Part shown: piece after piece, positions 2,109 through 54,121 of the stretch
How the letters are laid out: every line of letters starts with the position of its first letter
Position numbering within the stretch: the first letter of the stretch is position 1
Assembly: GCA_038046765.1 (NCBI GenBank)
Contig: JBBSVN010000001.1
Span: 1 to 64,000 of the forward strand
Reading direction: 5' to 3'
DNA from: Candidatus Micrarchaeota archaeon
Lineage (GTDB): Archaea; Micrarchaeota; Micrarchaeia; Anstonellales; Bilamarchaeaceae
DNA length: 64,000 nt
Position numbers and translations under genes: made by a program
Notes under the pieces: generated by a model
The model's database searches: none
What the model was told of the DNA's origin: nothing
What the model saw: the letters and a program-made list of their open reading frames with translations, nothing else

Positions 2109-2146
2109 TCGAAACGTTTTTAAATACTTTTTAACACATATTAATT

Positions 2147-2791
2147 ATGATTAAGTACAAAGATCTTGCCCAAGGTGCAAAAGTTATTCCAATTTCTAGA
2201 GCAGCACCTCATTTTATTGATGAATCAGTCGCAAGAAAACCTATTCCGCCAGAACAAATGGGTCAAATGCACGTTTTAACTCCAAGACCTAACTGGTCAA
2301 AACTAGACCTTGAAAATGATCGAATAGAAATATTCCACAACTTAAATTTAGAACAAACCTTGGAGTTAGAAAGACTAGATTTTGTAATTTTACCAAACAG
2401 TGTTATTGATCATATTTTACAAAATCCAAAATTAAGGGAGAAATACGCGAAGTTAGGTTTATTTCCCTGCAGAACTGGAACCTGGGTAGACCTTGATGAA
2501 GAAAATTGCATTATAAAACAGGATGGAAAAACAAAAGAAATCAGACTTCATACAAAAAATGGTTGGTATAAAAAAGACGAGTTCGGAATTCCTTCTGGCG
2601 CACCATCTAATGAATTTGATCCTGATGCGAGATACTTATATAGAGCAGGTAACTGTTCTGAGTTTCTGGTTCGCGTCGCCGGCTACATAGGCTGGCCTAA
2701 CATCTATGCGGGCACTGGTTGGTCCAATGGTCTTGGGGTGGCGTGCATTACCCGCGAAACGTATGAGAAATTATTCGTAGATAAAATCTGA
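2147..2791 (+). CDS. Putative DGR target protein, C-type-lectin-like fold
   Basis: FPCRTGT..GWY..GIP..ARYL..LVR[variable]GVAC; closely similar to the C-terminus of 23010..24938; GC-rich 3' segment. Confidence 0.7.
   Translation: MIKYKDLAQGAKVIPISRAAPHFIDESVARKPIPPEQMGQMHVLTPRPNWSKLDLENDRIEIFHNLNLEQTLELERLDFVILPNSVIDHILQNPKLREKYAKLGLFPCRTGTWVDLDEENCIIKQDGKTKEIRLHTKNGWYKKDEFGIPSGAPSNEFDPDARYLYRAGNCSEFLVRVAGYIGWPNIYAGTGWSNGLGVACITRETYEKLFVDKI
2666..2749 (+). repeat. Putative DGR variable region VR1
   Basis: 47/80 GC over 2671-2750; ends in ggggtggcgtgcatt, identical to 24873-24887. Confidence 0.6.
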
Positions 2792-5862: not shown

Positions 5863-7590
5863 TTATTGTTCGGGTTTTTGTTCTACTGTAACTGAAACCG
5901 AGCAATCTTTTGTATAAATTTCTAATTGATATTTTCCGGCTTTGTCAATTTCAAATGTCAAAGTATTCGTGATTTTGTTTCCCCCTTGCGGCACTACCTC
6001 ATCCAATATTGGCCGTTCAAAAATAGCATCATGTCTAACAAGCTTAATCCTTGTGTATCCTCCTACGCCTTCTAGGTTAATTACAAAACCAACCTTTCCA
6101 GCATCTAAATCAAATGCCTCTGTTCGTGAGATATCTTGTCCCGATTCACTAGATTGTCTAAATGTTTTTGAAAAACCCTCGGAAACCTTTGCAGGTTCTA
6201 ACTGCATTTGTTTTTCTTTTTCTTCAAGAAATCTTAAACGAGCTTGAAGGGTTGCGAGGTGTTTTTGGTTTACGGAAAGACGCCATTTTGAGAACTTGTA
6301 TTTAGGATACAAACATATCTCTAATAAACCTATCAATGCTATTTCAAAATTATCCTTACTTATATACTTAGCGGATGAATATTCTCCATAATCATCTATT
6401 TCAAATTCCCCGTGTTCAATCTTCTTTTCTGTTTCCTCAATCTCTTTTCTAACTTCTTCAATTGATTTACGTTTTAATCTCCAAGTTTTGAAAGCTGAAA
6501 CATAACCTCCTAGTGATCCTACAAAACCCAGCGTAGCTATACTTGCAACTAATAAATCGACCTTTTCTGCACCATCTAAAATAATCCAAGATGCTAATGT
6601 TGAAATTGTTGCTCCGAAGATCTTCATTGACACTCTTCTTCGCATTTCGCTACCCGTCAACCTTTCCTTGCCAACATCAACAGTCGCAACAGTCTGCGCT
6701 TGCCTAGTTGTCATCGCTTGCGTAGTTTCCTTTTTAGTTACCCTTAGCAAAGCCTCCTTCATTTCTGTTGCAGTTGCAAATCTTTTATCCGGGTCAATTT
6801 GCATTGTTCGTTCTACGATCGATCTATGCAAAGAATCAAAAATTCCAGAATAGTCAAAAATAAATGTATTTTTACAATGAGGTTCAATGTCGCCCACAGA
6901 TAAACTAAATAACATTGAACCTAAGGAATACACATCTGTTTGGAAAACTGGTTTAATACCCGCTTCAGGTGCAGTTGTGTGGGGTGTCTCAAATAAATAT
7001 ACTGAAGATAAGTTGCGATCAATTCTCGTTCCAATTTTTGCTGTACCGCCTACTTCAAGAACACGAATTGTGCCATCTTCTGTTAAAAGTGCATTGCTTA
7101 ATTTAAAATCCCTTAAAATTAGACCCTTGGAATGCGCAGAAGAAATAATGTCACAACATTCGCTAAGCATCTGGGTACTTAGTTCTGATTCTAAAATCCC
7201 TAGTTCATCAAGTCTAATTCCAGGTATATATTCTTTAACAAGATAAATTCTTTTTGTTATTTGATCATTTATGAATTCAAAATATTTACAATATCTAGGG
7301 TCTTCTTGTAAAATTAGTCCTTTTTTATATTCTTCTTCAAGTGATTCTGCTCTCGCATAATTCTTATTTGCAGTTGTTTTGATAACTACGTTTCGGTTTT
7401 CTTTTATGTCGTGAACTAAATATACTTCATACTCTTCTTTAGCTGATTTTCTTAGTGTTTGTATAATTCTAAATCTTCCAGTGAGCATTTGTCCTTCTTC
7501 TGGTGGCATTAATTTTAGCGCAATTTTTTCAGTTGCAGTCTTCACTTTATCCGTTCGTTCGTGTAGTCCTGCTAAAGCTAAATTTGTCAT
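5863..7590 (-). CDS. Ser/Thr kinase-like protein (degenerate), two TM helices, C-terminal beta domain
   Basis: VVIK, LRDFKLSN, APE, TDVYSLG, DPDKRF present; DFG position reads EVG; two hydrophobic helices around aa 322-367. Confidence 0.85.
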   Translation of the reverse strand: MTNLALAGLHERTDKVKTATEKIALKLMPPEEGQMLTGRFRIIQTLRKSAKEEYEVYLVHDIKENRNVVIKTTANKNYARAESLEEEYKKGLILQEDPRYCKYFEFINDQITKRIYLVKEYIPGIRLDELGILESELSTQMLSECCDIISSAHSKGLILRDFKLSNALLTEDGTIRVLEVGGTAKIGTRIDRNLSSVYLFETPHTTAPEAGIKPVFQTDVYSLGSMLFSLSVGDIEPHCKNTFIFDYSGIFDSLHRSIVERTMQIDPDKRFATATEMKEALLRVTKKETTQAMTTRQAQTVATVDVGKERLTGSEMRRRVSMKIFGATISTLASWIILDGAEKVDLLVASIATLGFVGSLGGYVSAFKTWRLKRKSIEEVRKEIEETEKKIEHGEFEIDDYGEYSSAKYISKDNFEIALIGLLEICLYPKYKFSKWRLSVNQKHLATLQARLRFLEEKEKQMQLEPAKVSEGFSKTFRQSSESGQDISRTEAFDLDAGKVGFVINLEGVGGYTRIKLVRHDAIFERPILDEVVPQGGNKITNTLTFEIDKAGKYQLEIYTKDCSVSVTVEQKPEQ

Positions 7591-22950: not shown

Positions 22951-23009
22951 TAGTTAAAATTTGGGTATAAAGCATAACCTTTTAAACACTTTTTGACACA
23001 TATTTGGAT

Positions 23010-24938
23010 ATGACAAGAAGGCTCACTCCAAGTAGTGGCAATGTAATACCTATAGAAGCAGCTAGAACTAGAGCTTTTGCCGTCAAAACTGACCAAGATC
23101 ACAAATCTTTAGGGATAGTTACTGGAGAAAGGGGAGGTTATGAACTAAAAAAATCTATTTTCAAGAACAATGGCACAACTGAATTATTTTTAGCAACTGA
23201 TTTAAAAACTAATAAAGAGGTAATCGTAAAAAGAGTAACTCTTAAGGCAGAAGATTCAACCTTTAAACTTGCCCCAAGGGAATTTGACATTATAAACTAT
23301 CTAGATCATCCAAACGTGGTTAAAGCGATTGATCAGACTATGACATCGAAGGAAAAAGACGGAAACCAGATAACCGAGTATTTCTTAGTAACAGAAAAAG
23401 TCGAAGGCAAAAATCTAAGGGAACATAGCGCTTTTGGCACTAATTTTTCAGAAGAAGAAAAAATAGAAATTATAACACAGATTTTGCAGGCACTAGAATA
23501 TCTTCATGATAGTGGCGTAATACACAGAGATGTAAAACCAGAAAACATAATGGTTCATAAAACAGAAGATGGAAAAATAAATGTAACTTTGGTTGATTTT
23601 GGCGTTACGCTTACTGCAGTTAGTACTGGTTCAACCGCGCTTCTTCCAATATTTAGTAAGGGTTTTACTGCTCCAGAAGTTTTAGCATGTGCATCTGATG
23701 TTGATGGCAGAGCGGATATCTATTCTACTTCAGCAGTTTTGTCCTGGATTTTTACCGGTTTAGATGGAACAGATATGCAAACTAAATTAAGGACCAAAGA
23801 AGAAATTGACTGCATTGATGGTCAACTTTTAAGTATAATCAAAAAGGGATTAAAGGCAGACCCTGAAGAAAGATATCAAACTGCAAAGGAAATGAAGGAA
23901 GCTTTGGTTAGTGAGATAGAAGAAGGGGCAGATATTGCCGTAGTTGAACCCATTGACAAAGTGAATAAAATTTATCGAGAACTTAAAGCAAGAAAAATGG
24001 AATTAAGAACTAAGTATGCACAATTGGATCGTTCATTTAAGGAAAGCATGAGAAAAACTTTGAAATATGTTATCCCGTCATTTGTAGTTTCTGTAGCTAG
24101 TCTTGGTTATATTTTGACTGAACAACCAAAAGGACTGGCAGCTTTGCTATCTAGTATTGGAGTCTTCTTAGGTTTAACTGTTGCTGGTTTAGTGTTGCAT
24201 TTTAAGTCCAAGGCTAACGCGGATAAACTTAAAAATCTGGATGACCTAGAATTACAAATCGGTGATCTTGCATCAGATTTAGAAGAAATTGAAACAATTC
24301 GGGATTTGGATTCTAAGCGTGATCTGTTTTTAGAAGCTAGATCAGAATCTTTGCTTAGGCTTAAGTCTTCAAAAAAAGCATTAAAAGAAGCAAAAGTCAA
24401 AACACAAGACACGGATGTTGTCGACTGGTTCCTTCTTGACCTTACAAGTAAAGAAATCCAAGTCCATAAAAACTTAAACTTAGAACAAACTCTTGCATTA
24501 GAAAGACTAGATTTTGTAATTTTACCAAATAGTGTTATTGATGAGATTTTACAAGATGGTGCGTTAAGAGAAAAATACACAAAGCTAGGTTTATTCCCCT
24601 GCAGGACTGGAACATGGGTAGAACTTGATGGAGAAAATTGTATAATAAAACAGGATGGAAAAAGTAAGAAAACAAAACTGCATATACAAGATGGCTGGTA
24701 TAAAAAAGATAACCTCGGCATTCCTTCTGGCGAACCTACAAATGAAAATGATCAAGATGCAAGATTTTTGTGGAGAACTAAAAAATATGTTGGCCCTTTG
24801 GTCCGTGGCTTCGACTGGAACGACTTCAACGGGCAGGATGTCGGTGCCCTCAGAAGGCTCGACGGCGGTTACGGGGTGGCGTGCATTTCTCGAGCCAAAT
24901 ACGAAGAAATTTTGGCTCGATCTATTCAAAATGAATAA
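23010..24938 (+). CDS. Ser/Thr protein kinase, two TM helices, coiled coil, DGR-target-like lectin domain
   Basis: VIVK, HRDVKPEN, DFG, APE, ADIYS; TMs around aa 355-399; C-terminal ~165 aa paralogous to 2147..2791; ATG at 23010. Confidence 0.9.
   Translation: MTRRLTPSSGNVIPIEAARTRAFAVKTDQDHKSLGIVTGERGGYELKKSIFKNNGTTELFLATDLKTNKEVIVKRVTLKAEDSTFKLAPREFDIINYLDHPNVVKAIDQTMTSKEKDGNQITEYFLVTEKVEGKNLREHSAFGTNFSEEEKIEIITQILQALEYLHDSGVIHRDVKPENIMVHKTEDGKINVTLVDFGVTLTAVSTGSTALLPIFSKGFTAPEVLACASDVDGRADIYSTSAVLSWIFTGLDGTDMQTKLRTKEEIDCIDGQLLSIIKKGLKADPEERYQTAKEMKEALVSEIEEGADIAVVEPIDKVNKIYRELKARKMELRTKYAQLDRSFKESMRKTLKYVIPSFVVSVASLGYILTEQPKGLAALLSSIGVFLGLTVAGLVLHFKSKANADKLKNLDDLELQIGDLASDLEEIETIRDLDSKRDLFLEARSESLLRLKSSKKALKEAKVKTQDTDVVDWFLLDLTSKEIQVHKNLNLEQTLALERLDFVILPNSVIDEILQDGALREKYTKLGLFPCRTGTWVELDGENCIIKQDGKSKKTKLHIQDGWYKKDNLGIPSGEPTNENDQDARFLWRTKKYVGPLVRGFDWNDFNGQDVGALRRLDGGYGVACISRAKYEEILARSIQNE
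24798..24887 (+). repeat. Putative DGR variable region VR2
   Basis: 52/80 GC over 24801-24880; 7 of 8 codons at 24807-24830 end in C. Confidence 0.7.
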
Positions 24939-24954
24939 TTAATTTTGAATATCG

Positions 24955-24996
24955 CGCGAAACTTATGAGAAATTATTCGTAGATAAAATCTAAAGT
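24955..24996 (+). repeat. Orphan copy of the 3' end of gene 2147..2791
   Basis: 40/42 identical to 2753-2794; reads RETYEKLFVDKI*. Confidence 0.9.
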
Positions 24997-25000
24997 TTGT

Positions 25001-25594
25001 TTATCTGCTCTTACTAATCGTATTATTTATTATCAATTCTTCAAGAGTTGAATTTATTTCAAACATTCCTGATAAATACGTTCCGTTAACAAACACAAGC
25101 GGTACTACACGCTCAGTTACATTGTATTTGACCATAAACTTATCATAAACGTCAAGTTCATTTTGTATAAGTACATTGTACCAGATAAAGTTTGTAACAT
25201 TCTCGTATTTTTGTTCTAGTTCGTTAATTTTCGGGTTTATAGAATTGGAAAACGGACAAAGAGGTGAATAAAAGTAATTAACTTCAAGATACCCTGTTTT
25301 GTTCTTTATTGTTGTGTTTTGATTTTGATTCGTTTCGTTATTTGTTAGATTAACAATGTTTAGACCTGAACTATTCGTTTGGTTTATTCCAAGCACGTCT
25401 ATTTTTACAGGAGTACTATCATTTAGTTTGGTTATATTGGATTTCGTTATATTCGTCTTGTTTGTACTCTCTAAACTGGTTTGGCTGTTATTGCTCGTAT
25501 TATCATAAAATCCATTTTTGTCGTTTTTTACACTCGTACAACCAGAAATGAGTAGCATTAAAGAAAAAAACGCTAGAATTAAAACTTTTTTCAT
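25001..25594 (-). CDS. Lipoprotein with thioredoxin/glutaredoxin-like domain (CPFS)
   Basis: ISGC lipobox, Asn/Thr linker, FYSPLCPFS, VVPLVFVNG. Confidence 0.8.
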   Translation of the reverse strand: MKKVLILAFFSLMLLISGCTSVKNDKNGFYDNTSNNSQTSLESTNKTNITKSNITKLNDSTPVKIDVLGINQTNSSGLNIVNLTNNETNQNQNTTIKNKTGYLEVNYFYSPLCPFSNSINPKINELEQKYENVTNFIWYNVLIQNELDVYDKFMVKYNVTERVVPLVFVNGTYLSGMFEINSTLEELIINNTISKSR

Positions 25595-53127: not shown

Positions 53128-53245
53128 AATAGGTACCTTGGCTTAACCGTATATTAAGTTTATTTTAATGTAAAACAATGGTTTATAAATACTTCGATGC
53201 ACATTGTATTTACTAATAATTACAACATTTAGAGGCGTTAATTTT

Positions 53246-54121
53246 ATGAGCACAACAATTCAACAACCAACTCAAAGAATAAGAGGCCCAAAGTTAGAAG
53301 TGTTCATATCAAGATTATATGGTCTTCCTTTTGATGAAGAATTAGCTAGAGCAGATAAAGATAATAGAGTTATTGTTTCTAGTAAAAGACTAAGTTCAGC
53401 CCTAATTGGAAGCGATGAATGGAAAGCAATCAAAAAAGCTTTTGCTTGCTGGTCTGGAACTATGACTGCTTATGTTGAACCAAATGTAGAACTTGGGCAA
53501 GCTGCTAGAAGACTTAGCGATCTTGGAGATTTTCCTAAGTTAAGTAAAAATCAGTACGAACATGCTATTGTTTATACTGACCCCCAAACAGGAAATGATT
53601 GGATCTTTCCAATTCCAGAAAAATATTTAAGAGTAAAAAATGGAATTTTAGTTATTGAGCACCCTGATTATGGTTTAGATAGAGAAGGAACAAATAGATT
53701 AGTTTTACCAGTATCAGTTGAAAGAGTTGATTTAGTTGAAGGTTTTCCAGTTCGAAATGGTTGGTATTTACCAGATGCGATTCATGGAATACCTCAAACA
53801 AGTCAAGTAGATTATTCAACTAAAGCTAGACACTTGTGGAGAGTTGATAAAAGAGTTGGTCCGGTTAGGCTCGGCTACGACGACATGGGCGGCATCGACG
53901 ACATTAACGGGCGGTATGTCGACTTTGACGATAGGCCGTCCAATGGTTACGGGCTGGTAACAGAGGCCAGCGAAGCTGGCACGCCGGCTACAAAAGACGA
54001 AATTAAAACTAGTAGACAATCTAGCGTCATTCAGTTAAATGAAGGAGACTCCGAATTAATAATTCGAGGAAGCGATGCAAAAATTGAAGCAGCTTTAAGA
54101 CTTTTAGAAAGTTTGAGATAA
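53246..54121 (+). CDS. Putative DGR target protein, C-type-lectin-like fold
   Basis: FACWSGT..FPVRNGWY..HGIP..ARHLWRV..VGPVR[variable]RPSNGYGLV; start at MSTTIQ. Confidence 0.75.
   Translation: MSTTIQQPTQRIRGPKLEVFISRLYGLPFDEELARADKDNRVIVSSKRLSSALIGSDEWKAIKKAFACWSGTMTAYVEPNVELGQAARRLSDLGDFPKLSKNQYEHAIVYTDPQTGNDWIFPIPEKYLRVKNGILVIEHPDYGLDREGTNRLVLPVSVERVDLVEGFPVRNGWYLPDAIHGIPQTSQVDYSTKARHLWRVDKRVGPVRLGYDDMGGIDDINGRYVDFDDRPSNGYGLVTEASEAGTPATKDEIKTSRQSSVIQLNEGDSELIIRGSDAKIEAALRLLESLR
53858..53956 (+). repeat. Putative DGR variable region VR3
   Basis: 48/80 GC over 53861-53940; 11 of 13 codons at 53870-53908 end in C. Confidence 0.75.

Follow-up and report, generated by a model that had tools for sequence, protein, structure and literature searches.

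The gene at positions 23,010 to 24,938 of the window, that is, of the whole 64,000-nt stretch analysed (positions 1 to 64,000 of contig C1 of the Micrarchaeota genome under study, labelled G000), raises the question whether an archaeal protein kinase is rewritten by a DGR, from which template, and what its variable surface may serve. A DGR-diversified kinase with a CLec recognition domain had been proposed in an initial annotation of the DNA; for this archaeon, the proposal was borne out by a template, by 19 of 19 mismatches at template adenines and by a CLec fold, as set out below.

Domain order of the kinase and its CLec paralogs

The gene, its domains and related elements were located as follows.

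22980..23004, plus strand: TATA-like promoter motif of 25 nt, 5 nt upstream of the ATG, common to the second kinase and both stand-alone CLec paralogs
23010..24938, plus strand: kinase-2TM-coiled coil-CLec gene, a remote DGR target (ORF, 642 aa)
23139..23924, plus strand: predicted Ser/Thr kinase domain of Hanks type (about residues 44-305) with intact catalytic residues and a degenerate Gly-rich loop
24423..24935, plus strand: C-type-lectin-fold (CLec) domain of an AvpA-like Micrarchaeota family without Pfam model, from structure model and profile search
24955..24991, plus strand: orphan copy of the paralog 3′ end behind the kinase stop, matching at 36 of 37 nt
2118..2791, plus strand: stand-alone CLec paralog of 214 aa (ORF 2147-2791) with the shared promoter, a GC-rich variable-region-like tail and an IMH-like site, no strong hairpin

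Residues 59-290 of the 642-aa protein matched Pfam Pkinase (E 6.9e-35), and K74, E91, H172/D174, N179, D196, E223, D236 and R288 were unchanged in six of six aligned relatives, which upholds the intact catalytic motifs annotated initially. On reading the sequence, the catalytic Lys, alphaC Glu, HRD..N, DFG, APE, subdomain IX Asp and subdomain XI Arg were all present; the GxGxxG glycine-rich loop was non-canonical in the window protein and five aligned relatives. A full-length model was of low confidence (mean pLDDT 59.9) and had a disordered N-terminal leader.

For the C-terminal 177 aa, a Pfam search returned no family at E <= 0.1. A model of the CLec domain, built with a 72-sequence alignment, reached a pLDDT of 94.6. 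Its top structural match among 48,161 chains was the nanoarchaeal DGR protein AvpA (5IOO; Z 7.7, rmsd 3.5, 135 aligned), followed almost exclusively by entries titled as C-type-lectin domains (nearly all of the 50 rows listed), including TaqVP (Z 5.9). Structural Z values under 8 are moderate, and Foldseek against the PDB with the same model gave no match at E <= 0.001; the modelled domain is nevertheless assigned a CLec fold because of the consistent match list and the DNA evidence. The lectin-like domain of the initial annotation was thus recovered, rather than a domain without CLec fold.

The last 170 residues of the kinase protein were 57% identical to the product of ORF 2147-2791. Between 24471-24765 and 2339-2633, the DNA was 82% identical over 296 bp, in agreement with the high nucleotide similarity noted earlier for a paralog near 2335-2600, and the variable-region-like tail of this paralog was indeed diverged and of other length, being 6 nt shorter than that of the kinase. 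A second stand-alone CLec paralog was located at C4:193926-193285, and both paralogs have GC-rich tails with an IMH-like site. When the genome was scanned for templates of both paralogs, only self-matches were obtained, and the assembly (89.7% complete) holds no template for either. The idea of the stand-alone paralog as donor was therefore abandoned, the donor being the template RNA on contig C4, while as partner of the kinase, the other role suggested initially, the paralog stays a candidate; the paralog tails appear to derive from a template since lost or left out of the assembly.

The 25-nt promoter motif matched the genome four times at 0-2 mismatches, exactly at the two kinases and the two stand-alone CLec paralogs. 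As controls, one unrelated match was obtained at 4 mismatches and none for each of 10 shuffled motifs. Because the motif occurs at 0-2 mismatches only before these four genes, they are regarded as one duplicated, probably co-regulated set. With the motif 5 nt before the ATG, the kinase gene start would be leaderless, and the orphan at 24955..24991 is probably a displaced older gene end.

The 1.5-Mb genome contains 13 ORFs matching the kinase profile and 12 matching CLec profiles. In a third kinase-2TM gene (L004:3752-5938, on contig C8), the CLec is internally deleted and the old gene end persists at the start of the next ORF. A divergent kinase in the window (5863-7590, minus strand) has two hydrophobic segments, atypical catalytic motifs and a different, beta-rich-looking C-terminal domain.

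Template, variable region and state of the retroelement

Following BLAST of the gene against the genome, two short stretches were matched on contig C4, one of which was the template repeat C4:71944-71858. The TR sought for the variable region was thus present, on another contig; none was found within the 64-kb window. On C4, DGR cassette A comprises a target gene, an RT-16 RNA, the template TR-A and a reverse transcriptase (RT). RVT_1 scored above cut-off at C4:70963-71385, directly downstream of TR-A, in a gene frameshifted at an AG tract, and RT-16 (Rfam) RNA was detected above the gathering score in both cassettes of the genome. Of the variable region annotated initially at 24798-24887, the existence stood but the limits did not, and were corrected as given here.

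24435..24504, plus strand: 70-bp stretch at the CLec start, common to the second kinase gene (identical runs of 39 and 30 bp)
24793..24879, plus strand: variable region copied from TR-A (template G000:C4:71944-71858, minus strand), its last 13 nt being the IMH-like site
24890..24920, plus strand: DNA hairpin inside the CDS just downstream of the IMH-like site, with 10-bp perfect arms (24890-24899 and 24911-24920) and an 11-nt loop

Between 24793-24879 and TR-A, 19 of 87 positions differed, and 19 of these 19 were template adenines (32 of the 87 nt being A; hypergeometric p 5e-11). Outside the IMH zone, 15 of 28 template adenines were changed. Similarly, all 20 mismatches of a second kinase-TM-CLec gene (C4:139124-137322) and all 17 of the cassette's own target were at template adenines. 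A genome-wide scan with TR-A returned three targets, namely the cassette's own gene (score 63.5), the window kinase (59.9) and the second kinase (55.6), while 40 triplet-shuffled templates scored at most 15.9. All three carry GGGG where the template has GAAA (IMH vs IMH*). Just upstream of the variable region, the two kinases differed at 62 of 288 sites; within it, none of the 51 non-adenine sites differed between them, as against 13 of the 28 adenine positions, a pattern read as recent, separate rewriting from one template. At the level of DNA, the mismatches show that the last 28 CLec codons of two kinases and of the cassette's own target received template sequence with randomised adenines; for the two kinases, predicted to be membrane proteins, this amounts to retrohoming in trans into the tip of the CLec.

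Nineteen codons of the window variable region are diversifiable, corresponding to about 10^15.8 protein variants. For the hairpin at 24890-24920, z was -3.73 (0 of 200 shuffles); only a 5-bp stem (z -1.0) was found in the second kinase.

A second template, TR-B (C4, about 13424-13330), has a remote target in the window, a stand-alone CLec gene at 53204-54121 (plus strand) whose variable region carries an in-frame insertion of 9 nt and which has a hairpin with a GAA triloop. The cassette target genes share a 104-bp upstream region of 90% identity (C4:73147-73043 and C4:14584-14481), and their proteins do not align at DNA level. Several CLec genes (on C7, C16 and C2) fit neither template.

The 70-bp stretch at 24435..24504 has the appearance of a recombination or conversion seam and of an assembly-ambiguous point. 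In run X2, one contig continued from the N-part of the window kinase along a path with 12 differences from the window sequence between 24444 and 24554; the two kinases differ from each other by just as many in this interval. Because this contig leads into the CLec start of the second kinase, the pairing of N- and C-parts is judged the one weak point, and the misassembly risk flagged initially near 24430 was to this extent justified. The architecture would not be lost, however: the sole alternative path seen is the CLec of the other kinase, and because this CLec also carries a TR-A-derived variable region, either pairing would yield a kinase-TM-CLec protein with a template-derived tip. Similar fusions were moreover found in another genome (G014) and a metagenome locus (L179). 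Despite the near-identical 70 bp and the X2 path, a kinase part joined to a CLec part by misassembly is highly improbable.

The two RT genes of the genome are 73% identical and share an AG repeat (C4:71420 and C4:12881; loci L001 and L006) at which the reading frame of each is broken. In each, an open N-terminal frame up to the tract is followed by an open C-terminal frame with YVDD. Where an AG or poly-G tract occupies this position, 14 of 15 RT genes were out of frame, compared with 3 of 64 without tract, counted over 79 genes (77 of 80 fetched loci, three having no N-part, and the two of this genome) that include non-independent related loci and one locus containing Ns. In related Micrarchaeota RTs, AG or G11 tracts at the same spot are nearly always out of frame; the strikingly constant G11 might alternatively reflect programmed slippage. 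Paul et al. (2017) reportedly described purine tracts in RT genes of DPANN archaea, and the supplements of that work may list kinase targets.

Over 24500-25200, 0 differences were found in the assembled contigs, which drop rare variants, of runs X2 and X3; runs X4 and X5 cover the kinase gene in pieces only (14 of 30 and 20 of 30 bins). A PF22296 (Avd) match was not found in the 89.7% complete genome; some DGRs are without avd (PMC8632793). Because both RTs are out of frame and two other samples show the same variable region, diversification looks switched off at present. The same two observations, together with the Avd result, the decayed paralogs and the truncated third kinase, would also suit a fossil target, in which variable regions were recently written, both RTs are dead and the kinases keep fixed, selected tips. 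We hold this to be unlikely, given that open N-terminal and C-terminal (YVDD) frames are kept around the tract, that one tract breaks both RTs though these are only 73% identical, that templates and RT-16 RNAs are intact, and that the association of tract and frameshift holds across relatives. A reversible off state is the preferred reading of the two frameshifted RTs.

Relatives of the kinase and of its CLec domain

The best matches to this DNA were groundwater metagenomes of one study, and the closest RTs were Micrarchaeota records (76% and 74%), which makes Micrarchaeota the probable host. When genes next to named RT loci were compared, median identities came to 38-42% in all four groups and did not discriminate between them. 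The CLec family was detected in 87 of 176 genomes of the order. Among the 150 of 301 CLec matches listed, none outside this genome lay in a frame longer than 498 aa, and no kinase domain was found in 18 scanned out of 104 other CLec matches. A full-length kinase with a short CLec occurred twice among 2814 candidates, both in this genome. In viral contigs, no CLec relative was found.

The fetched loci yielded 59 distinct kinase ORFs; of those not belonging to this genome, a single one, in G014 (643 aa), had a CLec. Because G014, a one-contig genome, carries this protein without any RT match, the kinase-CLec architecture does not need an active DGR. Metagenome locus L179 encodes two tandem kinases, the second ending in a CLec that is 28% identical to the window CLec (pairwise E 6e-13) and 51% identical to that of G014. 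Its tail is variable-region-like, with an IMH-like site; for the L179 and G014 tails, no template was found among 244 sequences, and the best matches of the L179 tail were templates of other genomes, with several non-adenine mismatches. HHalign of the G014 C-terminus with the short-CLec alignment was weak (probability 12.9), homology resting on other sequence comparisons. Kinase-TM-CLec relatives were found in one further family genome and one metagenome contig. The G128 and G111 (split) kinases end in an unrelated helical domain, and those of G112 and G089 in none; the kinase-hairpin unit accepts exchangeable C-terminal modules.

A kinase tree, built by a quick method from 42 rows, had unresolved deep forks and several long branches, and was set aside for claims on origin. 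Two further members of the CLec family are of note: L109:543-1961 (G082) encodes a CLec with an internal variable-region-like patch, followed by repeats judged ankyrin-like by eye, and at least 20 CLec-family matches (132 candidates) were obtained in G139, a genome that is 75% complete.

Topology, proposed function and known systems

Three features lie between the kinase and CLec domains.

24060..24116, plus strand: transmembrane helix 1, residues 351-369, moderately hydrophobic (KD mean 1.63)
24141..24197, plus strand: transmembrane helix 2, residues 378-396 (KD mean 2.25), followed by basic residues
24207..24389, plus strand: long helical stalk between membrane and CLec (helix 375-447 in the low-confidence model, and sequence), a putative coiled coil

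Two transmembrane segments had been annotated initially and were found again at residues 351-369 and 378-396; in the full-length model (mean pLDDT 59.9), both are bordered by long helices. Counted in front of helix 1, within the loop and behind helix 2, K/R residues numbered 5/1/4 in the window kinase, 3/1/6 in the second and 4/1/1 in the shortened third kinase, and interhelix loops measure 3-6 residues in all three. Paired helices were likewise read in L116 and L179, and the one stand-alone paralog tested had no hydrophobic segment. From hydropathy and charge bias, the simplest topology would be N-in, C-in, with kinase and CLec both cytoplasmic; two segments were predicted between them, not the odd number of spans of a receptor kinase. 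Because the predicted topology places both domains in the cytoplasm, the 642-aa kinase is probably not an outward-facing receptor. An outward receptor kinase, in which one helix spans the membrane and an extracellular CLec senses host-cell surfaces, would be in keeping with the weakness of helix 1 (1.63) and with the cell-cell attachment proposed for DPANN DGR targets in the accessible text of PMC6349945. Such a receptor is rather improbable in the face of the closely spaced helix pairs in all three kinases of the genome and in L116 and L179, the basic residues after the second helix in two of the three, and the soluble nature of the closest CLec paralogs.

In the mechanism that we favour, the window gene, a remote (trans) target of cassette A on C4, encodes a protein that would be anchored to the inner membrane face by a hairpin of two helices, leaving both the kinase and the CLec in the cytoplasm. 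The variable CLec surface would bind a protein inside the cell or at the membrane, which would be delivered to the kinase as substrate, or the kinase would be switched on through the coiled-coil stalk. Because both RT genes are out of frame at the AG repeat, rewriting would be episodic, most cells holding fixed variants and rare repeat-length changes allowing bursts. On this prediction, which we consider fairly probable, binding of a cytoplasmic or membrane protein by the variable surface would select that protein as substrate or activate the kinase, and rewriting would come in bursts; points against it are the only moderate hydrophobicity of helix 1 (1.63), the single basic residue after the hairpin in the third kinase, the low confidence of the full-length model, the failure to find Avd or, in the contigs of runs X2 and X3, any variant of the variable region, and the G014 gene in a genome with no RT match.

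Kinases like this one were found in 39 of 75 family genomes and in 2 of 325 other genomes of the phylum. Their concentration in the family, the disordered N-terminal leader of the low-confidence model and the manipulation of host signalling proposed for a viral kinase target (Roux et al., in its accessible part) would be compatible with an exported effector, passed into the host-cell membrane, where its variable CLec picks out host substrates during an arms race between host and symbiont. A shared N-terminal export leader was not detectable, the kinases and paralogs scoring 28-32, not above background among 1203 ORFs, and export seems improbable. A wider reading may be put forward tentatively, as a doubtful yet conceivable extension: an adaptive-receptor-like signalling set in a small-genome, probably host-dependent archaeon, in which one template would rewrite the tips of several membrane kinases, co-regulated soluble CLec copies would tune these kinases and the slippery RT repeat would gate bursts. 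Foreign proteins, whether from viruses or from the host cell where the two cells touch, would then be recognised by the kinases, which would either phosphorylate these proteins or trigger a response by signalling.

The CLec of cyanobacterial kinase-CLec variable proteins is of the FGE-sulfatase type. Here, by contrast, it is AvpA-like and without Pfam match, the C-terminal 177 aa having hit no family at E <= 0.1, FGE-sulfatase included; the comparison points to separate CLec families as the source of the kinase-CLec design in archaea and in cyanobacteria. As a lead judged by domain make-up, kinase-Lcl_C fusions of Thermodesulfobacteriota (ESM Atlas clusters) also join a kinase to a C-terminal CLec-like domain, the Lcl_C family having a CLec-like fold, but are bacterial and of about 450 aa.

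Ser/Thr kinase-CLec DGR variable proteins, internal and remote, are known in cyanobacteria from the accessible text of Vallota-Eastman et al. (2020, PMC7517822), so that the precedent cited in the initial annotation is genuine, and kinase-CLec targets also appear in genome surveys (accessible parts of PMC5758913 and PMC11661182). As far as the former text describes them, the cyanobacterial proteins share with the window kinase the grafting of an N-terminal Hanks kinase to a C-terminal CLec whose 3′ end holds the variable region, as well as dispersed paralogs, the use of remote targets and the proposed autoinhibition or substrate choice. Most of them are predicted to be cytosolic, whereas the host here is an archaeon and a two-helix membrane hairpin and coiled coil are present; remote targets were called there at a 50% identity threshold and here by a perfect adenine-only template match.

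Remote variable regions are also known in DPANN archaea (Paul et al. 2015, PMC4372165, accessible text). The DUSEL4 Nanoarchaeota DGRs and AvpA (5IOO), as portrayed there and in the accessible text of Handa et al. (2016, PMC5006420), share with the present system a short variable region (about 28 codons, many of them AAY-derived), an IMH of GGGGT type paired with an IMH* rich in A, a hairpin within the CDS, multiple cassettes per genome, RT-less variable regions and the CLec fold (Z 7.7). They differ in that the target here is a multidomain membrane kinase ('kinase' being absent from the main text of both papers), that the kinase hairpin has an 11-nt loop instead of a GRA triloop, and that Avd was not found. 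With the clade 5 DGR conflict-system sensors of multicellular bacteria (Dore et al. 2024, PMC10907252, accessible text), the system shares trans-acting DGRs and membrane targets with a cytoplasmic CLec, there proposed as sensors, but no effector or NTPase neighbours were recognised around the window kinase; CPR/DPANN clade 5F DGRs are described in that text as being without conflict domains. According to the accessible part of the Roux et al. preprint, archaeal clade 5/DPANN DGR targets are mostly without transmembrane or recognisable domains.

An archaeal kinase DGR target was not found in the literature searched, though survey supplements may list one. The design of a DGR-rewritten kinase, known in cyanobacteria, is apparently not yet described in archaea. 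Of the new system announced in the initial annotation, the archaeal, membrane-tethered kinase-CLec combination looks undescribed and is retained, while a wholly new system is not, in view of the precedents in the accessible texts of PMC7517822 and PMC4372165. On two contigs, three genes in all were written from one archaeal template, each with mismatches at template adenines only. Unlike the DPANN DGR targets that are assumed, in the texts accessible, to serve attachment, an enzyme would report here what the variable surface binds, and because of this kinase read-out, what archaeal DGRs select for becomes testable.
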